A DNA stretch of 64,000 nt, from IMG/VR virus record IMGVR_UViG_2630968748_000003; one strand, given 5' to 3'. The translations under genes were made by a program, and so were the position numbers. This document shows, one piece after another, positions 8,764 through 44,424 of the stretch; position 1 is the first letter of the stretch, and each line of letters begins with the position of its first letter. The notes under the pieces are model-generated. The model was not told the origin of the DNA. It made no database searches and was given only the letters and a program-made list of their open reading frames with translations. Origin of the DNA: a virus.

Positions 8764-9360
8764 TTATTCTGTGGCTGGTGCTTTTGGTTGGTTTGCTCCG
8801 TCGGCTTCTTCGTCGTACTTAGTACCGCCTGCGGTGTCGTTGTCGTCCTTAGCAATATCCAAACCACGGAAAATATAATCAAAGTCGGCTTGTTGATCGT
8901 CTGAAAGTGAAAGCCAACCGTCTTTTGGTGTGCCGTCAACTGTGAAAGTAACATCACGTGTTGAAAGGTCATCGGCGTCGTTGTCGTTGCTATCTTCGTT
9001 TACTGAACCTCTCATATACCATGCGTAAACTTCCTTTGTTGAACCGTCCGTATTTGTCTTGATACGGTCTTTGTTTACGATCCATGCCTCAACCTTGCGA
9101 CCGTCAAATAATGCGTGTCTGATTTTATCAGCAATGAAATGGTTGTTGTTTACGAACTCAACTTCAAGTTCTGTCTCAACGCTTGATTGAGAGGAAACTG
9201 ATCCATCTTTAGTAGCTGTTGAATCAGAGTCAACACTTGGGTCAAAACTCAATGATGTCTGATAAGGAACAAGTTGAGCCTCCATCTTTGCTTGGTCCTC
9301 TAAAAGACGGACAAACAATACTGCATTTTTACCTTGTAATTTAACTAATTGTTCTGCCAT
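8764..9360 (-). CDS. Major tail protein, TP901-1 family
   Basis: LQGKNAVLFVR..YQT..DSDSTATKDG..VEAW motifs. Confidence 0.9.
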   Translation of the reverse strand: MAEQLVKLQGKNAVLFVRLLEDQAKMEAQLVPYQTSLSFDPSVDSDSTATKDGSVSSQSSVETELEVEFVNNNHFIADKIRHALFDGRKVEAWIVNKDRIKTNTDGSTKEVYAWYMRGSVNEDSNDNDADDLSTRDVTFTVDGTPKDGWLSLSDDQQADFDYIFRGLDIAKDDNDTAGGTKYDEEADGANQPKAPATE

Positions 9361-10162: not shown

Positions 10163-10467
10163 TAGGAAATACCAACTTGGAAACTCTTCACTTTTGAGGT
10201 GGAGGTTTTAGTTTTCTTGATCCAGTGTTGCGTATCATTCCCAATCAACAAAAAAGACCAGTTGAAATTGATACTTTCAACTAGCCTTATTGTTTTTGTT
10301 TGAATGTTATAGTTGCCGAACGTTTCAACATTACGTTGAACGCCGTTGTCTGTTACGTTTGCCCAACACTTGAACACTTCTGTTGGTGTTGAGTCATGTT
10401 GACCTGTTTCCGGGTTGTATTTGTTGCTCGGATCAGTGTAAAACGTGATCGGAGTATCAAATCGCAT
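10162..10467 (-). CDS. Head closure / head-tail adaptor
   Basis: MRFD..YNPETG motif; synteny. Confidence 0.75.
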   Translation of the reverse strand: MRFDTPITFYTDPSNKYNPETGQHDSTPTEVFKCWANVTDNGVQRNVETFGNYNIQTKTIRLVESINFNWSFLLIGNDTQHWIKKTKTSTSKVKSFQVGIS

Positions 10468-10835
10468 TAGTATTTCCTCCCGAATGAATACGGGTCAACA
10501 AACTTGATCGTAGGCAACGGGTTCTCTGAATGTTCTTTCAAATAGTCCGTAATGTCGTTTTCAAAGCCCGAAAAGTCATCATCACTAAACGTAATACTTT
10601 CTCCGTCCTGTGAATAAGAGGTCATGCCCTCGTTACTCATGCGGTTGTATCGTCTGATAGACACCTCAAACAATATAAATTCCAAAGAGCTTGGCACGTC
10701 CTCTGTGGTATGTAGTTTAGACTTCAATCGTTGAGTAGTTCGTTTAATGATTAGGTTTAACAGCTTATCACGATCATTATTTGAAATAGACAAGGCGGTT
10801 TTAATGTCATCTAGTAGCGTAGTTTCTTCTGCCAT
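10467..10835 (-). CDS. Head-tail connector (gp6/gp15-like)
   Basis: RRYNRMSNEGMTSYSQDGESITF motif. Confidence 0.88.
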   Translation of the reverse strand: MAEETTLLDDIKTALSISNNDRDKLLNLIIKRTTQRLKSKLHTTEDVPSSLEFILFEVSIRRYNRMSNEGMTSYSQDGESITFSDDDFSGFENDITDYLKEHSENPLPTIKFVDPYSFGRKY

Positions 10836-10843
10836 ATTTCCAC

Positions 10844-11002
10844 CTATCCTTTCGTCGTGAATGTTGATGAATGAATAACTTTGTTTCCTTTTCGTAATTC
10901 CATGACTTGCTCTGATCCTGCTTTAAGACCTGTCAAATGGACTGTATCTCCCAATTTAAAGTCTTTTTTAATTAGCTTGTCATTACAATATAAGTCTGCC
11001 AT
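10844..11002 (-). CDS. 52-aa partial FN3-like protein, probable capsid decoration
   Basis: Not in the copy-1 ORF track; MADLYCNDKLIKKDFKLGDTVHLTGLKAGSEQVMELRKGNKVIHSSTFTTKG; SD AGGGGTG. Confidence 0.75.
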   Translation of the reverse strand: MADLYCNDKLIKKDFKLGDTVHLTGLKAGSEQVMELRKGNKVIHSSTFTTKG

Positions 11003-11069
11003 TTAAACACCCCTAACGTCTGCTGTTGTCTTTGTAGCGTTTGCTACTTCAACTCCGGCAACTTCGGGA

Positions 11070-11960
11070 CTAGCTGGGAGAGTCTGTTCCTGCCTCTGCT
11101 GAAATAGTAGATACAATGATACCGTCCAAACGTTCTGGTAATAGCAAGAGAGCGTCTGCAACAACACTTTCGTATGATAGTGAGTCGTTCTTAGGTTCGT
11201 GAGCAATTCCAACGAGTCCTGTTTGATCGGTTGTAAAGTTGAATGCTTGTGAGAGTGATCCACCGTTCAATGTTGCAAAGTATAAGTTTAGGTTTTGTGA
11301 AGCTGTAACGTAAATTGTACCTGCTGGAACGTTGTTACTCATGATTAAAGTATTTACACCAAGGAAATTTTGAATGTAAGTCATACCGAATACTGTTTGA
11401 ACTGTTACAGGTGCTGAACCAATGTAATCATAAAAATCAATAGGGTTGACTAATGCAACAGAGGTAACGTCCTCGTCCTCGAATGCAACTGCGAGTTGAC
11501 CCAAGCCTTTTGCAAGTGATTGTTGAAAGCCTGCTCCTGTTGCCTTACCAGTTCCGTTTGCAAATTCGTCGAACAATTCTTTCTTGATATTCTTTTGAAT
11601 TGCTTTGAGTAGTTCGGAGTCTGTGTCTGCAACTGCACCTTGAAATCCACTTGATTGAATTGCTTCCGCAGTTACATTCTTGCGCCATTTGTTAAAGGTT
11701 AATTCCTTAGTGTCTGATAGTTCTTTTTTGACTTCTGATAATGGAATAACTTCGCCCTCTGCAACCTTTTCGTCTGCAAGAGTAACTGTTGACTTGTAAA
11801 TCTTCACTGTTGATCCTAATGCAAGAGCTTGTTTGCGTGTGATACCGAGAACTTTCATTAATGTTGTAAGTCCCTCGTTGAATTGTTCTACGAAATCAAC
11901 TGATTGTGGAATTAACTTGTCTTTTGTAACTGTCTTTTCGTCTACTGCCATGGTGTCCAT
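11070..11960 (-). CDS. Major capsid protein
   Basis: 296 aa after the scaffold gene; VAEGEVIPLS..KWRKNVTAEAIQ motif. Confidence 0.93.
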   Translation of the reverse strand: MDTMAVDEKTVTKDKLIPQSVDFVEQFNEGLTTLMKVLGITRKQALALGSTVKIYKSTVTLADEKVAEGEVIPLSEVKKELSDTKELTFNKWRKNVTAEAIQSSGFQGAVADTDSELLKAIQKNIKKELFDEFANGTGKATGAGFQQSLAKGLGQLAVAFEDEDVTSVALVNPIDFYDYIGSAPVTVQTVFGMTYIQNFLGVNTLIMSNNVPAGTIYVTASQNLNLYFATLNGGSLSQAFNFTTDQTGLVGIAHEPKNDSLSYESVVADALLLLPERLDGIIVSTISAEAGTDSPS

Positions 11961-11970
11961 GACCTCCTAA

Positions 11971-12594
11971 TTATTTATATTCGGGGAATAGGTTCATATT
12001 CTCCGCAATTTTTTCTTGTCGTTCTTGTGGATCAACGATTGCCATAATTTCATCACGTGTGATCGTGGAACGTTGACCCGAAATTCTTGGTGTTGCTCCC
12101 TTTGTTAGTTCCTTGGTTGTTTCGTCTTTGATTGATTGAATGAACTTAACCAATTTACCAACGTTGGTTTTTGTGCTGTCGGCTTGATCGGTTGTAACCA
12201 AGTCTAATGCCTCGTCGCTTGCTGTGATCCCTTGTTCTTTGAACATTGAACTAGCGGTATCACGCATTCGATAAGTTGCAAGTTCCGCCTTTGCTTTGTC
12301 TGCCTCGGCTTGTACTTGCTGTAATTGATACTTTTGTTTCTCGTCGGAGTTCATTTTTGCTAACTTCTTAGCCTCGTCAACTTCGTGTTGTCGTTTCTTT
12401 TCCGCTCTGTCCAACTTTTGTTGAACAATTGCGTTGACCTCCTCATCAGTGTATTTTTTTCCACCGGTCTTTTCTTGATCGTCGTTGTTATCTTTGTGAT
12501 CGTCTGTCTTATTTTCTTCCGGTGTTGCAACCCCTGTGTTTCGGTCTTGTTTGTTCAACTCTTCGGTTGATTGAGTATCTGTTTGGTTATCCAT
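11971..12594 (-). CDS. Capsid scaffolding protein (DUF4355-like)
   Basis: Acidic N-terminus, KKYTDEEVNAIV, coiled coil, TPR near the C-terminus. Confidence 0.9.
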   Translation of the reverse strand: MDNQTDTQSTEELNKQDRNTGVATPEENKTDDHKDNNDDQEKTGGKKYTDEEVNAIVQQKLDRAEKKRQHEVDEAKKLAKMNSDEKQKYQLQQVQAEADKAKAELATYRMRDTASSMFKEQGITASDEALDLVTTDQADSTKTNVGKLVKFIQSIKDETTKELTKGATPRISGQRSTITRDEIMAIVDPQERQEKIAENMNLFPEYK

Positions 12595-12861: not shown

Positions 12862-13875
12862 TCAACGGAATAATTCGACGCCTTTCGCATTGGAAATATC
12901 TACATTTAATTTATTAGAATTTGCGTCAACTTTGCTACTTGTATCATTTTTTCGTTCCTTTGGTGTTGGTGGTTCGTTCTCCTCATCATCAACAGGAACT
13001 GTCGAGCAGCGACAATTGGGATGTACAGGAATATCTGGGGCGGGATTATCTCCACCTCCCATCAATTCAAATACTTTATTGTCTAGCGGTTTGCATACAG
13101 AACATGCTGTCGGTTCCGCAATCCATTTTACTTTGTCAAAATCATTTTCCATATACAAAATACGACTGTATTGGTCCGCAACCCTGGCTGACTCAGTTCT
13201 AGCAATCCGAGAAGCAGCATAACTAGCATTCTTTACCTTATCATCAATCAGCGACCGGAGCCGTGAACTCAATTGATCAGCATTCATACCCATTACCAAA
13301 CTACGTGTAATGATATTGTCTAGTTCGTTTTTCAACACGTCTTGGTTCGTCCAAATTCTGTCCGAGAACTTTGCTCCGTGATATGAACTATATATCAACG
13401 TTTCCATTCTCCGTTCTGTCATCTTTGGAACCGTCTCACCAAGTATTCCCGCTTGTCGTACACGCTCGTCCTTTAATTCAGTAACAAGTCGTTCACGAAG
13501 TTTGTCGCTTAACTCGTCTGTTTCCGCCAAGAGATCAACGCCAATTTGACTTTTAAGCATTTCCAAACGATTAATTCGCATAGTCGCATTGTAAATCCTC
13601 AACCTTTCATTTGCTTCGTCAGAGAAGTCTTGCTCCTCCACCATCTTTTTTGCGGTGTCTTGAAATCCTTTAACATCAAAGTTGGAGACTCGTTTTTTCG
13701 CTTCATCTATACTGATACCCTCTTTGTTTGCATATCGTGTATAAAATTGAGATATATCTTTATCTATTTTGTCTAATGATTTGTTATAGATTTCATCTAT
13801 CTGCTTGTCAAAATCAATGTCTTGTTTTTGTTGTTGATCTATCCACTCACGCTCTCGCTTTTCCCAATATCCCAT
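12862..13875 (-). CDS. Minor capsid protein, SPP1 gp7 / MuF family
   Basis: RIARTE, CSVC and PVHPNCRCS motifs; follows the portal. Confidence 0.93.
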   Translation of the reverse strand: MGYWEKREREWIDQQQKQDIDFDKQIDEIYNKSLDKIDKDISQFYTRYANKEGISIDEAKKRVSNFDVKGFQDTAKKMVEEQDFSDEANERLRIYNATMRINRLEMLKSQIGVDLLAETDELSDKLRERLVTELKDERVRQAGILGETVPKMTERRMETLIYSSYHGAKFSDRIWTNQDVLKNELDNIITRSLVMGMNADQLSSRLRSLIDDKVKNASYAASRIARTESARVADQYSRILYMENDFDKVKWIAEPTACSVCKPLDNKVFELMGGGDNPAPDIPVHPNCRCSTVPVDDEENEPPTPKERKNDTSSKVDANSNKLNVDISNAKGVELFR

Positions 13876-13877
13876 AA

Positions 13878-15248
13878 TTATTCACCTTGTTCACTGGTTG
13901 TTGAATTGTTAAATCCGTAATCAGTTGCAGGGTTATTGTTAACTGCGTTTCTTGTTTGTTCGTTTTGTTCTTCTTGAATGCGAGTTATTTCCGCCTTAGG
14001 ATCACTGACAACTGACAGCGTAGACAATGCGGTTTCAAGTGAGGTAATGCCGATCAAGTTCTTTGCTGTTTCTGCTTCCTCTGCGACGTTGTTCGGAATA
14101 TTACGGGTAAATCTGAACGTTATGTCCATTGGTTCGCCATAGGGCAATTGAACTCCTAATACTGAAAACATTTCACGTAAGTTCTGTGTAAATTTACGTT
14201 CTTTGTTAACAGCAAGGTTACTCATTGATTGCATTTTGTATGCTAACGCCGTTCCCGAGGTTGAACTCCCGAATACGTCATCACTAATATTCGCAATCAT
14301 ACTAATTTGATAAATCATTGTCGTTAGTCGATTGAGGATATTTTCTTGATTACCGTCTGCGTCTGGTTTCTCGAGGAACTTTGCGTCAACGTCGTATTCT
14401 TCACTAGCGTTTTTAGTCACGATCAAACGGTTCTGTTTGATATTGAGTTGTTCTTCCTCCGTCAAATCAAAGTTCTTTAGGAACAAATAAGCGTGTGCAA
14501 AGTAATCAATATCATCTAGCTTGGCACTAAATGCCTTGTCGTATGCGTGAATTAATGTAATGACTGGATCAAACACTCCCATGCGTTCCTCATTATCGAA
14601 GAACTCGACCGCAGGCACTTTGCCTTTGAACACCAATAGTTTTGAGTCTGTGATCCTAATATCATCAATATAAGTGAACGAGTCGGCTCTATTTGAATAG
14701 TATGCCGTTCCTGTAATCTCGTTCTTTGCATTCTTGCCATATGTAACAAAGGCAATAGGCTTTTTGTTGATCGTGTCATCATAAATCATGAACGACTGAT
14801 CCGGAGAGAGAACGGCTGTTTTTAGTTCGCTGTTCTCGTTGTTGTATGCCAACATGAACGCTTTGCCGTAGATACTCGACTGCTTGGAAACCTCTGCAAG
14901 TTTGTCAACGAATGAATTATTTCTGATCCACGCTTGTAGAACTTTGTCCTTGTCTTGATCGTCCACTTTGATAGTTGGTGGAATACCAATAAAATAACCA
15001 TTCAATGTGTCAACGAGGTTCTTTGGAAAGTTGACAATCAAATGGTTGTTATCTTGCATATTTTGAGCTATCTCGTCATCAAAGGCTTTGGTTTGCCCTT
15101 TATATTCTCGTAGCTTGTCTTTGTACTGCTCTTCGTAGTTTGTTCTGTGATAGTTGATGAAACTTCGTAAATCTTCCCGAGTGAACTCTTCGTCTACTGG
15201 AAAGAGGTACTCGTCGTTATCACTGACAATTCCTCTTTGTAATAGCAT
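13878..15248 (-). CDS. Portal protein, SPP1 family
   Basis: 456 aa; VNFPKNLVDTLNGYFIGIPP and SSTSGTALAYK motifs. Confidence 0.95.
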   Translation of the reverse strand: MLLQRGIVSDNDEYLFPVDEEFTREDLRSFINYHRTNYEEQYKDKLREYKGQTKAFDDEIAQNMQDNNHLIVNFPKNLVDTLNGYFIGIPPTIKVDDQDKDKVLQAWIRNNSFVDKLAEVSKQSSIYGKAFMLAYNNENSELKTAVLSPDQSFMIYDDTINKKPIAFVTYGKNAKNEITGTAYYSNRADSFTYIDDIRITDSKLLVFKGKVPAVEFFDNEERMGVFDPVITLIHAYDKAFSAKLDDIDYFAHAYLFLKNFDLTEEEQLNIKQNRLIVTKNASEEYDVDAKFLEKPDADGNQENILNRLTTMIYQISMIANISDDVFGSSTSGTALAYKMQSMSNLAVNKERKFTQNLREMFSVLGVQLPYGEPMDITFRFTRNIPNNVAEEAETAKNLIGITSLETALSTLSVVSDPKAEITRIQEEQNEQTRNAVNNNPATDYGFNNSTTSEQGE

Positions 15249-15258
15249 TTGCTACCTC

Positions 15259-16515
15259 CTAAAATAATAAGTTCCTGTGGACTTTCGCTTGAACCTTTCC
15301 CTTGCCGTTGATTTCTTCGACAGCATATCTCGTTGCGTCTGCCCAATGGTTGAAAAGGTCAACAGGCTTGTTTGTGTACTCTCCTGTTTTCTTGTCCTTT
15401 TGCCATGTGTAGTTCTCTAGTCCCTCAATGACTTTTTGACAGCGGTCATCAACGATCAACTCGTACTGTTGCATGAATTGAATACCTTGAATGATTGAGT
15501 CTTTGCCTTTGTTGGACTTCCGAACACGTTCAATTCCGTTACGCCGTAGTTCATCAATACTCTTTGGTTCTGCGGCGTCGGCTGTGATTACTTCTTTTGA
15601 ATATCCCATTGACTTGATTACGTCGGCTATTTGATTGTTCATCATTCCCGTTTTGCTGTATTCCTCAATGAAATACATTTTTTTGTTCTTGTCGTCCACC
15701 TTTACATGAATAAAGAACGACGGGTCATTCGTATAACCGAAATCAAGTCCGAACATGCTCGGAACGCTTTGTAGTTCGGGAGAGTCACTGTTCAAGCGAC
15801 GAACTTCGTAATTAGGAAAGATTAGTTTGTCGAGTGTTGCAAACTCTCCAAGAGCATATATTCGATACCAAACGGGGTTTGTTGTTTTGAACTTCTCGAT
15901 ATTTCTCCGAGTTTGATCGTCAACAAACTTGTTATCTTTGTAGCTCGATTGATGAATGATCGTGTCCGGCTGTTTATTTTTGAAGAAATACTGATAAACC
16001 CAATTAGCTTTTGATACCGGGTTGAACATTAGAAATATTTGCTTGTTAGAGTGTTTCCTTTCACGTACACGCAATGTAAGTTGCTCGTAGTCCTCTTGAC
16101 TGAACTCGGTTGCCTCTTCCATTACAACGTCCGACAGTCCCTTGATTGACTTAATCTTTTCTTGATCGTCCATGCCTTTGAAAAGGAACATTGCTCCATT
16201 CGGCAAAGTGATCTCGAAATTTGTCTTGTTGATCTTGCAATAAGGCAACAACTTCCATTCGGATAGTCGAATAACAACGTCCTCATAGATTGAGTCACGT
16301 AATCGACTCCCAACCTTTCGGAGGAACAATACTTTGCGAGGGTGTTTCCATTCTTTCAAGGCTTTCAATACTACCTTTTGAACAACGCCGTGTGACTTTC
16401 CACTTGCTGCTCCCCCGTACCAAACCTCTGTAAAGTGTTCATAGTCATTCAAACTGTCAAAGACTGATCGGTTGAACTCTTTTTCGGGGTGCATGAATTT
16501 AATATCAATTGTCAT
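15259..16515 (-). CDS. terL: Terminase large subunit, PBSX family
   Basis: YGGAASGKS Walker A, VVMEEA Walker B, GLDFGY and HWADATRY nuclease motifs; start moved to MTIDIK. Confidence 0.95.
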   Translation of the reverse strand: MTIDIKFMHPEKEFNRSVFDSLNDYEHFTEVWYGGAASGKSHGVVQKVVLKALKEWKHPRKVLFLRKVGSRLRDSIYEDVVIRLSEWKLLPYCKINKTNFEITLPNGAMFLFKGMDDQEKIKSIKGLSDVVMEEATEFSQEDYEQLTLRVRERKHSNKQIFLMFNPVSKANWVYQYFFKNKQPDTIIHQSSYKDNKFVDDQTRRNIEKFKTTNPVWYRIYALGEFATLDKLIFPNYEVRRLNSDSPELQSVPSMFGLDFGYTNDPSFFIHVKVDDKNKKMYFIEEYSKTGMMNNQIADVIKSMGYSKEVITADAAEPKSIDELRRNGIERVRKSNKGKDSIIQGIQFMQQYELIVDDRCQKVIEGLENYTWQKDKKTGEYTNKPVDLFNHWADATRYAVEEINGKGKVQAKVHRNLLF

Positions 16516-16927
16516 CTTCTGGATAATCTCCAATATCAATTTCAATATTGGTTCGGTTCGTTGTGTTGACGTTATCAGTAAACAAGGCATGTCGTTTCCC
16601 GATCAACTCCGCAGCCTTGATCCTGTCTTTTGCTGTGACAGGCACGTTCTCGTACAAACCTTTTGCGGTTGCCACCGTTTCCTTTGTCTGTCCTCGCATG
16701 GTCTTTGATAGGAACTCCATTACTTCGGTTGCGTCGGCAATGCTTTCACTGTGCATTGAGTCCACCTGCTCTTGTATAGCCGATTTAATGTCATCTTTTG
16801 TAAGCAATCTATTTGCCTGTTGTCTTGCCGATTTCTCTGCGTAACCGGCTCTTAACGCTGCCTGTGTTGCATTTAAATCTTTGATGTATTCATCAACGAA
16901 TTTCTTTTGTTGTGCATTCAAACTCAA
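16505..16927 (-). CDS. terS: Terminase small subunit
   Basis: QKKFVDEYIKDLNATQAALRAGY motif; TTG start with GGAGGTG RBS. Confidence 0.95.
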   Translation of the reverse strand: MSLNAQQKKFVDEYIKDLNATQAALRAGYAEKSARQQANRLLTKDDIKSAIQEQVDSMHSESIADATEVMEFLSKTMRGQTKETVATAKGLYENVPVTAKDRIKAAELIGKRHALFTDNVNTTNRTNIEIDIGDYPEDDN

Positions 16928-31706: not shown

Positions 31707-32693
31707 TTATCCCTTAAATCCACTACCTTGCTGAAATTTAACTGGGATATATTCATCTGTGGAAACTTGGTAGCACCAGCCAACATTAGGTACTTTAAAT
31801 AGTTCTTCACCGGTTGCCCATGAAGTGCCACCTTTAAATACTTGGTTGCTGTCTTTTATGCTTTGACCTTTAGAATTGTATGCATTAACTCCGTAACCGT
31901 CTAAATAGTTAATAACAATCTTGCCCGCCTTGTCAGTGACAGACTGTGGAATGTAAGTATCATTGCCGATTTTAAAGTATGCTTTTTTATCACGTACTAG
32001 AATATCAGCTGATTGCCATGCCGTGCCACTAAGGATATCAGTCCCAATATGAGGAACGCCTTTGCTACTTGTTGTGGTAAATGCTTTGAAGTAGTCAGCC
32101 GTCACAGTCACCACATTATTAATAGTGGCTTTCTTCTCTGGTTCGGGATCGTCATCAAATCCGTTTGCAAGGTCATATGCTAGCTGTGATTTAGTGATAC
32201 CCATGCTTGCAAAGTAAGGGTAAGGATCAACGTGGTCACCGCCAAAATTATTAGTTACCCATTGATGTGTCTTGATTCCATTGCCCCCACTGTCTAGAGT
32301 GAGCGGGATACCGTAAGCATTAGCGTAGTAGCGAGCTACTTCCACATACAAACGATAGGCTTCTCTAAATTGGTGTTTGTCGCCAGTGCGGGCAAACTCG
32401 ATTTGTACTGGTGCGTATGGATTAGCCGTTAATGCTCCCCACGATACGTAGCCTGGTTCACCGATTTGGTAAACTTGTGCCTTGCCGTCCATATAACCAA
32501 CAAAAAACTGGACGTAAGCACTGCCATAGTTGTTATGCATATACTGAACCTCATGCAGTAACGCTTGTGGATCTCGTTTGTCGTTATCATTACCTGATTC
32601 GTGGAGGATAATAAAACGGTTAGAAGCTAGCCGTGTATCACCTTGATAATCGTCTAATGTGTATGTCTTATTAATGATATTAGGATTAAACAT
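31707..32693 (-). CDS. Endolysin: Amidase_2 domain + two SLAP-like binding domains
   Basis: IILHESGN, QIEF and HQWV..DHVDP motifs; C-terminal GTAWQ..YFKIG and GTSWAT..YQVSTDEYIP. Confidence 0.92.
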   Translation of the reverse strand: MFNPNIINKTYTLDDYQGDTRLASNRFIILHESGNDNDKRDPQALLHEVQYMHNNYGSAYVQFFVGYMDGKAQVYQIGEPGYVSWGALTANPYAPVQIEFARTGDKHQFREAYRLYVEVARYYANAYGIPLTLDSGGNGIKTHQWVTNNFGGDHVDPYPYFASMGITKSQLAYDLANGFDDDPEPEKKATINNVVTVTADYFKAFTTTSSKGVPHIGTDILSGTAWQSADILVRDKKAYFKIGNDTYIPQSVTDKAGKIVINYLDGYGVNAYNSKGQSIKDSNQVFKGGTSWATGEELFKVPNVGWCYQVSTDEYIPVKFQQGSGFKG

Positions 32694-42937: not shown

Positions 42938-43304
42938 TAGTATTTCCTCCCGAATGAATACGGGTCAACAAACTTGATCGTAGGCAACGGGTTCTCTGAA
43001 TGTTCTTTCAAATAGTCCGTAATGTCGTTTTCAAAGCCCGAAAAGTCATCATCACTAAACGTAATACTTTCTCCGTCCTGTGAATAAGAGGTCATGCCCT
43101 CGTTACTCATGCGGTTGTATCGTCTGATAGACACCTCAAACAATATAAATTCCAAAGAGCTTGGCACGTCCTCTGTGGTATGTAGTTTAGACTTCAATCG
43201 TTGAGTAGTTCGTTTAATGATTAGGTTTAACAGCTTATCACGATCATTATTTGAAATAGACAAGGCGGTTTAATGTCATCTAGTAGCGTAGTTTCTTCTG
43301 CCAT
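42937..43304 (-). pseudogene. Head-tail connector (copy 2), frameshifted as assembled
   Basis: 1-bp deletion near 43270 versus copy 1; probable sequencing error. Confidence 0.8.
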
Positions 43305-43312
43305 ATTTCCAC

Positions 43313-43470
43313 CTATCCTTTCGTCGTGAATGTTGATGAATGAATAACTTTTTTCCTTTTCGTAATTCCATGACTTGCTCTGATCCTGCTTTAAGACCTG
43401 TCAAATGGACTGTATCTCCCAATTTAAAGTCTTTTTTAATTAGCTTGTCATTACAATATAAGTCTGCCAT
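43313..43470 (-). pseudogene. FN3-like small protein (copy 2), frameshifted as assembled
   Basis: 1-bp deletion near 43350. Confidence 0.7.
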
Positions 43471-43537
43471 TTAAACACCCCTAACGTCTGCTGTTGTCTT
43501 TGTAGCGTTTGCTACTTCAACTCCGGCAACTTCGGGA

Positions 43538-44424
43538 CTAGCTGGGAGAGTCTGTTCCTGCCTCTGCTGAAATAGTAGATACAATGATACCGTCCAAACG
43601 TTCTGGTAATAGCAAGAGAGCGTCTGCAACAACACTTTCGTATGATAGTGAGTCGTTCTTAGGTTCGTGAGCAATTCCAACGAGTCCTGTTTGATCGGTT
43701 GTAAAGTTGAATGCTTGTGAGAGTGATCCACCGTTCAAATGTTGCAAAGTATAAGTTTAGGTTTTGTGAAGCTGTAACGTAAATTGTACCTGCTGGAACG
43801 TTGTTACTCATGATTAAAGTATTTACACCAAGGAAATTTTGAATGTAAGTCATACCGAATACTGTTTGAACTGTTACAGGTGCTGAACCAATGTAATCAT
43901 AAAAATCAATAGGGTTGACTAATGCAACAGAGGTAACGTCCTCGGTCCTCGAATGCAACTGCGAGTTGACCCAAGCCTTTTGCAAGTGATTGTTGAAAGC
44001 TGCTCCTGTTGCCTTACCAGTTCCGTTTGCAAATTCGTCGAACAATTCTTTCTTGATATTCTTTTGAATTGCTTGAGTAGTTCGGAGTCTGTGTCTGCAA
44101 CGCACCTTGAAATCCACTTGATTGAATTGCTTCCGCAGTTACATTCTTGCGCCATTTGTTAAAGGTTAATTCCTTAGTGTCTGATAGTTCTTTTTTGACT
44201 TCTGATAATGGAATAACTTCGCCTCTGCAACCTTTTCGTCTGCAAGAGTAACTGTTGACTTGTAAATCTTCACTGTTGATCCTAATGCAAGAGCTTGTTT
44301 GCGTGTGATACCGAGAACTTTCATTAATGTTGTAAGTCCCTCGTGAATTGTTCTACGAAATCAACTGATTGTGGAATTAACTGTCTTTTGTAACTGTCTT
44401 TTCGTCTACTGCCATGGTGTCCAT
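43538..44424 (-). pseudogene. Major capsid protein (copy 2), frameshifted as assembled
   Basis: 8 single-base indels versus copy 1; probable sequencing errors. Confidence 0.85.

Follow-up and report, generated by a model that had tools for sequence, protein, structure and literature searches.

A candidate recoding cassette at the end of a prophage capsid gene may divide one FN3-like domain between a frameshifted tail and a separately translated protein

The DNA analyzed here (the window; 64,000 nucleotides of IMG/VR virus record IMGVR_UViG_2630968748_000003) contains a prophage of Companilactobacillus, a harmless food-associated lactobacillus, with an unusual arrangement at the 3′ end of its major capsid gene. 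There, a 24-codon tail in the +1 frame (herein the tag) runs from a rare CCC codon near the end of the capsid gene to a UAA stop, and a gene for a 52-amino acid (aa) protein (herein the catcher) begins at the very next base. We interpret the arrangement as a recoding cassette in which tag and catcher would be the two parts of a single fibronectin type III (FN3)-like domain and would assemble on the capsid by fold complementation. We regard this overall reading as an even call; its component parts, the coding capacity of both pieces and their relationship to one domain, are each more secure and are treated separately below.

In the mechanism that we propose, a minority of ribosomes would slip by +1 at the rare CCC (CCC AGC to CCA GCU), as comparison with relatives and precedent from other phages suggest, so that the last residue of the capsid protein would be replaced by a 24-residue tail ending at the UAA. 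The adjacent 52-codon gene would be translated on its own, from its own ribosome binding site. According to a low-confidence model, the tail would form strands A and B and the 52-aa protein strands C through G of one FN3-like domain. Binding of the 52-aa protein to the tagged capsid subunits would then complete the fold and would leave a few FN3-like knobs on the head.

Capsid gene, tail, and 52-codon gene are all read on the minus strand of the window (Table 1). Read in the +1 frame from CCA, the 24-residue tail starts PASPEV and ends VRGV, where it meets the UAA. The 52-codon open reading frame (ORF) lies in the same frame as the tail, its AUG occupying the bases right after the UAA; the encoded protein contains LTGLKAGSE and has the C terminus STFTTKG. 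A Shine-Dalgarno sequence, AGGGGU, is placed such that its G run ends 7 nt upstream of this AUG. An earlier interpretation of the DNA from its letters alone (herein the sequence-only reading) had correctly given the coordinates and sequences of the capsid end, the +1 frame, the UAA, and the next AUG. Its description of the 52-aa protein was right as to LTGLKAGSE and wrong as to the C terminus, given as STFTTK with the last G dropped.

The sequence of the locus is real and contains no assembly error. Contigs from four other public runs span positions 10700 through 11400 with zero indels and at most one base change each. The same layout is found in 13 Logan/ENA contigs and in the genome of Companilactobacillus furfuricola, making up six haplotypes from at least eight studies in which UAG, UAA, and AUG are invariant; because these contigs and the C. 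furfuricola genome share the layout, we assign the host to the genus Companilactobacillus. The sole difference across 10700 through 11400 in the four independent runs is at window position 10998 (G>A on the plus strand), which occurs in one manure-metagenome contig and converts the second codon of the 52-aa gene (Ala) to Val. No RNA data set was among the sequencing runs listed as holding the locus.

To assess coding capacity, ratios of nonsynonymous to synonymous substitution rates (dN/dS) were obtained by comparing the window with the furfuricola-like clade (∼83% DNA identity). For the tail, dN/dS is 0.14 in the +1 frame and 2.4 and 1.6 in the other two frames, calculated over eight substitutions (5.5 synonymous, 2.5 nonsynonymous). 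The 52-codon ORF gives values of 0.17 to 0.19 in its own frame and 1.6 to 5.6 in the other frames, and the 3′ end of the capsid gene gives 0.04 to 0.08 in the capsid frame. The 52-codon gene is intact in all haplotypes. A single base just 5′ of the CCC varies across the six haplotypes, one of which has UCA for UCU at this point; the change is silent in the capsid frame and would be Leu to His in the +1 frame, as is predicted if the frame changes at the CCC. Two segments show no differences when the window is compared with the furfuricola locus, one of 21 nt at the shift site and one of 38 nt that spans the UAA-AUG junction and includes the AGGGGU, which points to additional constraints at the nucleotide level at both places. 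Coding conservation of the +1 frame, on which the sequence-only reading depended, is thus seen in the low dN/dS of the tail and again in the recurrence of such a tail behind the capsid gene of a “Lactobacillus terrae” (L. terrae) prophage (below). We infer from this coding signal that the tail is very likely translated, most plausibly via a +1 slip at the CCC. That the 52-aa protein is made as a separate product we consider highly likely: its coding signal is clear, and separate translation is indicated because the UAA is invariant, the gene has its own Shine-Dalgarno sequence, and the corresponding next gene in L. terrae lies 2 nt out of frame.

The proposed shift site has several properties expected of +1 recoding at proline codons. 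Its CCC is the only one among the eight proline codons of the window capsid gene, and the single-CCC pattern likewise holds for the capsid genes of furfuricola and of a metagenomic contig described below (L029). In the host, CCC is rare (2.7 per 1000 codons, compared with 18.5 per 1000 for CCA), and a single tRNA-Pro gene was found, with anticodon UGG; re-pairing from CCC to CCA would swap a wobble pair for a cognate pair. A rare CCC is therefore overlapped by a +1 proline codon that suits the tRNA better, and it stands at the 3′ terminus of a gene for a major structural protein, behind which an open, conserved +1 frame continues. The precedents cited by the sequence-only reading hold up: in Listeria phage PSA (NC_003291), both cps (ACA CCC UCC) and tsh (ACA CCC UGA) are annotated as undergoing “ribosomal slippage”, and SPP1 gp17.1* gains an FN3 motif by a +1 shift (PMC6316719). 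A hop from the CCC to another CCC 10 nt downstream, leading into the same frame, was also considered and is not favored; of the loci compared, just the window and those of the furfuricola clade would allow it.

The relationship of the two pieces to FN3 domains emerges from their alignment with complete repeats found in relatives (alignment A4). In it, the tail corresponds to strands one and two of these repeats, in the order P-x-P, V-x-V, T...V, and everything from the third strand onward, the hallmark G-L-x-x-G motif and the terminal F-T-T included, is covered by the 52-aa ORF. The stop is located in the B-C loop, such that the tail comprises strands A and B and the ORF strands C through G, and the first repeat of L029 aligns with tail and 52-aa ORF together. 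In this alignment one chain holds an incomplete fold and the other exactly the missing strands, the match being weak over the tail half. A profile of the tail and ORF with the complete repeats retrieves human fibronectin in the PDB (E 1.3e-4). The repeats of the relatives match phrog_341, an FN3-type extension annotated on major tail proteins, and the complete repeats of one of them (P0014, an 87% paralogue of P0007 taken as representative in its stead) score marginally above the Pfam fn3 cut-off (25.5 bits vs. 25).

Models were built with AF2 for the single-chain read-through, with the UAA read as Q, and either with or without a nine-row alignment. With the alignment, the model is a seven-strand A-B-C-C′-E-F-G sandwich (predicted template modeling [TM] score 0.62) whose nearest folds are FN3, strands A and B being alignment-guided and of low predicted local distance difference test (pLDDT) values. 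A Foldseek search with this model returned FN3 or related immunoglobulin (Ig)-like domains as most of the top 50 PDB matches (TM 0.43 to 0.67, E 0.03 to 0.13). From the homology seen in the alignment and the modeled structure, the tail and the 52-aa protein are probably halves of one FN3-like domain. The proposal in the sequence-only reading of one FN3 domain cut after its first two strands thus gains from the position of the break in the B-C loop and from the FN3-like model, while its placement of the tail remains of low confidence.

Comparison of relatives reveals loci in which the module is absent, split, or unsplit. In the Lactobacillus phages LfeSau and JNU_P11, and in a further locus (L019), there is no module, and the adaptor gene directly follows the capsid gene; the major head protein of LfeSau is 52.7% identical to the window capsid and that of JNU_P11 42.9%. 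The split state recurs in an L. terrae prophage (CP024610, locus L028), whose capsid belongs to phrog_544 like that of the window but has almost no pairwise similarity to it. Here the capsid gene has ACA CCC AGC near its end, followed by seven further codons, and the +1 frame encodes a 20-residue tail ending ...NITETSADIVGD, then UAA. This end is homologous to ...NATKTTADVRGV in the window; the residues common to the two tails (N, T, T, A, D, and G) are specified by different codons. The AUG after the UAA lies 2 nt further on, and the 214-aa gene that it starts does not share the frame of the tail. Next comes a 235-aa gene, whose product has 46% identity to the 52-aa protein over its N-terminal 50 residues (E 2e-14) and continues with a pair of complete FN3-like repeats. 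Shine-Dalgarno sites of the GUGGGGGAU type precede both downstream genes.

The unsplit state is represented by the metagenomic contig L029, whose capsid belongs to phrog_422 and whose capsid gene ends ACU CCC AGU AAA UAG. Its +1 frame is open for 276 codons from inside the capsid gene and encodes three complete FN3-like repeats (P0015). The core N CCC AGY is common to the window, the L. terrae prophage, and L029; together with the +1-frame sequence that follows, it is all that these capsid ends share, the capsids themselves having little or no pairwise similarity. The shift site and downstream module therefore recur in two capsid families, split behind phrog_544 and unsplit behind phrog_422. 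Both forms that the sequence-only reading had suggested looking for among homologues accordingly exist, the fused one in L029 and the split one in L. terrae. Tag and catcher co-occur, adjacent to one another, in three lineages, and both are absent in LfeSau, JNU_P11, and L019; the position at which the catcher starts is identical in the window, furfuricola clade, and L. terrae 235-aa proteins.

Because the L. terrae catcher carries two further FN3 repeats, the tag may be where interchangeable decoration proteins dock. The proposed range of catchers would extend from the bare 52-aa form of the window to the 235-aa form of L. terrae with its two extra FN3 repeats. In its broadest form, the proposal would be of a mobile, natural “tag and catcher” system of virion decoration, in which a two-strand tag, produced solely by the slip, would mark a few capsid subunits and any protein beginning with the five-strand catcher could dock there through completion of the fold; we advance this tentatively, as a possibility falling somewhat short of an even call. 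By analogy with other phage Ig/FN3 domains, the putative role of such decoration is likely to be in adhesion.

The L. terrae 214-aa gene (L028:3339-3983), which stands between the tag and the 235-aa gene, has no Pfam or PHROG match. Comparison of the first 40 residues of its product with the catcher gives an E value of 0.0013 and a probability of 19% in hhalign and an E value of 0.07 in BLASTP; given so weak a resemblance, it could either represent a second catcher bearing another payload or have no relation to the catcher. The idea that its C terminus serves as a second tag for the next gene (a “daisy chain”) was rejected, as 322 of 1000 shuffles reached an equal score. Behind the tail-tube gene of the window (9360..8764), no second tag was found in any frame.

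Searches for further examples covered several collections. Neither DNA nor protein searches of INPHARED phages, run with the locus, the read-through, and the 52-aa protein, gave a true match, and a word-indexed protein search with the read-through returned the window's own protein only. Two proteins were gained from a full-library search, namely, a real homologue of the 52-aa protein and the 235-aa protein of L. terrae; the other matches were repeats or junk, P0005 being a translated tandem repeat. Viral contigs scanned with P0015 and with the 214-aa protein of L. terrae yielded no matches, and a protein-atlas look-up of the 52-aa protein was uninformative (best score 0.76). In BFVD, the best two matches to the model were A0A6G5XV50 (795 aa) and A0A6G5YF86 (909 aa), each over 51 columns at a root-mean-square deviation of 0.7 and with 47% and 37% identity, respectively; these may be large phage proteins with a close homologue of the catcher.

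A number of observations weigh against assembly of tag and catcher on the capsid, and they are considered here beside the explanations that they would favor. The main live rival is that both products are made and that no complementation takes place: the tail would act alone, for example as a flexible extension, the 52-aa protein would be an independent head or assembly protein, and the FN3 likeness would reflect descent from a once fused domain. This would agree with the AF2 model made without the alignment, in which residues 26 through 77, the 52-aa part, form a confident four-strand unit (pLDDT 83 to 91) and might on this evidence be stable alone, with the tail disordered (pLDDT below 50). 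Even with the alignment, which itself sets the FN3 register, the pLDDT of the tail rises only to ∼52 to 54. The sequence signal for the tail as strands A and B is also weak; against a profile of seven complete repeats it scores 2.8 bits, in the expected register, a score that 23 of 2000 shuffles matched. The L. terrae tail gave no signal against the same profile, and Pfam fn3 (PF00041) gave no match to the read-through (E up to 1). Nevertheless, an FN3 domain without strands A and B would expose half its core, the break falls exactly in a loop, with the same catcher start in all three groups of proteins, and tag and catcher are present or absent jointly across the relatives. We therefore judge independent action of the two products to be unlikely, though it is the alternative that deserves most attention.

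A second alternative dispenses with the frameshift. The 67 nt that separate the 52-codon gene from the capsid stop would then be an untranslated leader with a ribosome binding site, the 52-aa protein a stand-alone decoration protein, and the coding signal a product of chance or of nucleotide constraint. The shift site gives this view some footing. No stop directly follows the CCC, AGC being next and UAG one codon on; CCC-A is not avoided in host genes, where 601 of 1846 CCC codons have A next; and no stable RNA structure was found at the site (minimum free energy over 151 nt, z 0.12 relative to shuffles, in a calculation without pseudoknots). In addition, the dN/dS of the tail rests on only eight substitutions and on essentially one pair of clades. 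Because the codon after CCC is AGC rather than a stop, CCC-A is not avoided, and no stable RNA structure was found, a low efficiency of slipping is expected, but even a low-efficiency slip would be expected to yield several tagged subunits among the hundreds in each capsid. The stop lies 2 and 7 codons on in the relatives, and PSA cps (CCC UCC) also has no stop in the A site, which is thus not universal in this family of sites. Against an untranslated leader, five of the eight substitutions in the tail hit the third base of a +1-frame codon, the six shared residues are preserved in the L. terrae tail through different codons, the 276 open +1 codons of L029 begin at this motif within the capsid gene, and PSA is annotated with the same type of site. 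Absence of a frameshift is, on balance, improbable.

The two pieces could alternatively be the remnants of a decaying gene, an ancestral capsid-FN3 frameshift fusion hit by a nonsense mutation. Such a history would be in keeping with the existence of the unsplit form in L029, with close capsid relatives that have no insert of any kind, and with the fact that a 52-aa catcher without a payload gains little over a fused domain, a further point against the cassette. However, both pieces are under purifying selection, the Shine-Dalgarno sequence and AUG of the downstream piece are conserved, and the split has been retained not only in all six haplotypes but also in L. terrae, where a 2-nt offset has accumulated with both parts intact. 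Given purifying selection and a split kept in three lineages, we assign decay only a slim chance. The sequence-only reading had itself raised the alternative that frameshifted ribosomes read through the UAA in frame, which would yield a capsid subunit with a complete FN3 domain in one chain. In the window and the furfuricola clade, tail and ORF do share a frame with only the UAA between them, but the two extra bases in L. terrae put its next gene out of frame, and a UGA stands there two codons past the UAA. Readthrough would moreover need two successive rare events, and UAA is a codon recognized by both release factors. It is highly improbable, chiefly because of the frame of the L. terrae gene. 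Among these explanations, complementation between a recoded tag and a separately made catcher is the one that we prefer.

The window contains the locus twice. Positions 1 through 31035 match positions 32471 through 63492 at 99.93%, revealing tandem prophage copies with a unit of ∼32.47 kb. Of the 21 indels between the two copies, 18 are at 43269 through 44913; they are single-base and lie beside a contig end (43217/43218), the contig ends of the assembly falling within copy 2. Because single-base indels cluster beside this contig end, we treat copy 2 as being of low quality at 43313 through 44424. The 1-nt deletion in the copy 2 catcher is probably an assembly error, since independent contigs agree with copy 1. 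The tandem copies could represent a true dilysogen, or reads from replicating or circular phage DNA; one isolate run yielded a 32,480-base contig with the locus, about one phage unit in length. Table 1 gives the boundaries of the features, including the neighboring late genes; the capsid gene is flanked by the scaffold gene (DUF4355) on one side and by the head-tail adaptor gene on the other.

Table 1. Features of the capsid gene region and the proposed cassette, in window coordinates
Feature	Position	Strand	Remarks
Terminase gene	16590..15259	-	Late operon
Portal gene	15248..13878	-	Late operon
Minor head protein gene	13875..12862	-	Late operon
Scaffold gene (DUF4355)	12594..11971	-	Late operon; adjoins capsid gene
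Major capsid (head) protein gene, 296 aa	11960..11070	-	phrog_544 major head protein, E 1.2e-55
Putative +1 shift site, UCU CCC AGC UAG	11070..11081	-	CCC at 11078..11076, CCA at 11077..11075
+1-frame 24-codon tail (tag), proposed strands A and B of FN3-like domain	11006..11077	-	
UAA stop ending tail, directly abutting next AUG	11003..11005	-	
Shine-Dalgarno-like AGGGGU within last tail codons	11009..11014	-	Basis: sequence reading
52-aa gene (catcher), proposed strands C, C′, E, F, and G of FN3-like domain	10844..11002	-	
Head-tail adaptor gene, downstream border of insert	10467..10835	-	Pfam Phage_connect_1, E 4.6e-20
Second tag and catcher copy	43313..43545	-	In tandem second prophage copy; 1-nt deletion in catcher

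If docking of the catcher onto the tag is true, it would provide a function for the short extensions that frameshifting adds to capsid and tail proteins of phages, for which we know of no published explanation since PSA, the literature searched offering none. Recoding would in that case set the number of attachment sites instead of adding a finished domain. The pair would also be a small natural split domain (24 + 52 residues), usable for the display of cargo on phage heads at a controlled copy number.

Other recoded or neighboring small domains occur around phage capsid genes. Two IMG/VR relatives of the window with 52 to 56% capsid identity (L020:3840-4028 and L021:3845-4001) have −1 slippery heptamers, A AAA AAU and G GGA AAA, right before the capsid stop, and their −1 frames encode extensions of 48 to 58 aa with an HeH/LEM-type domain (Pfam HeH E 1.8e-6; Ish1 E 1.7e-7). 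From these heptamers and extensions, the capsid family of the window would also use −1 recoding, for a different small domain. The PSA Cps-L extension (L043:2136-2288), which is known from experiment, is an SAP/HeH-type helix-extension-helix of the same kind, and Dulem virus 33 has a separate 35-aa ORF after its capsid gene with the same kind of domain (Rho_N E 8.9e-6).

Structural proteins of phages are already known to acquire an Ig or FN3 domain through recoding, in SPP1, PSA, and A2. In the searchable literature, we found no account of a split FN3 domain, of strand complementation or frameshift tags in the capsids of phages, or of a domain divided between such a tag and a separate gene. 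To the known cases the locus adds a natural unsplit relative, a relative in which the catcher bears a payload, and the same shift core and repeats behind two capsid families.

Programmed +1 frameshifts giving Cps/Cps-L and Tsh/Tsh-L in Listeria phage PSA were reportedly described by Zimmer et al. in 2003. The PSA capsid gene resembles that of the window in that the CCC of its +1 shift lies within a few codons of the gene end, and in PSA cps, as in the window, the CCC is not next to the stop (ACA CCC UCC in PSA, ACA CCC AGC in L. terrae, and UCU CCC AGC in the window). In both, the outcome is a short C-terminal extension on a fraction of the capsid subunits, which for the window is a proposal. 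The two differ in that Cps-L gains a whole HeH/SAP-type domain (Pfam SAP E 1.6e-6) rather than part of an FN3 domain, no domain-completing partner gene is evident in PSA, and the capsid families are different. In SPP1, gp17.1* arises by a +1 shift at CCC UAA, from a rare CCC to an overlapping proline codon, and the FN3 motif so gained is displayed on the virion by a minority of subunits (about 3:1) and is non-essential (PMC6316719). In contrast to the window, the SPP1 protein is that of the tail tube and not the capsid, the stop occupies the A site after the CCC, and the whole 87-aa FN3 domain is in one chain, with no split and no completing protein.

A natural relative in the unsplit state is L029, which has the same shift core and the same family of repeats. 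It differs in its capsid family (phrog_422) and in having no stop in the B-C loop, such that its decoration would be a covalent part of the capsid subunit. Parallels for completion in trans are the donor-strand complementation of chaperone-usher pili and the engineered SpyTag/SpyCatcher pair, in which an Ig-type sandwich is completed by one or more strands of another chain. An incomplete sandwich completed in trans, with tight and specific attachment, is the likeness that we propose for the window. The window tag, for which no covalent bond is indicated, would differ from these systems in being made by recoding and carried on a virus capsid; and whereas pilins donate one strand (G) and the Spy system one isopeptide-forming strand, the tag would donate two N-terminal strands.

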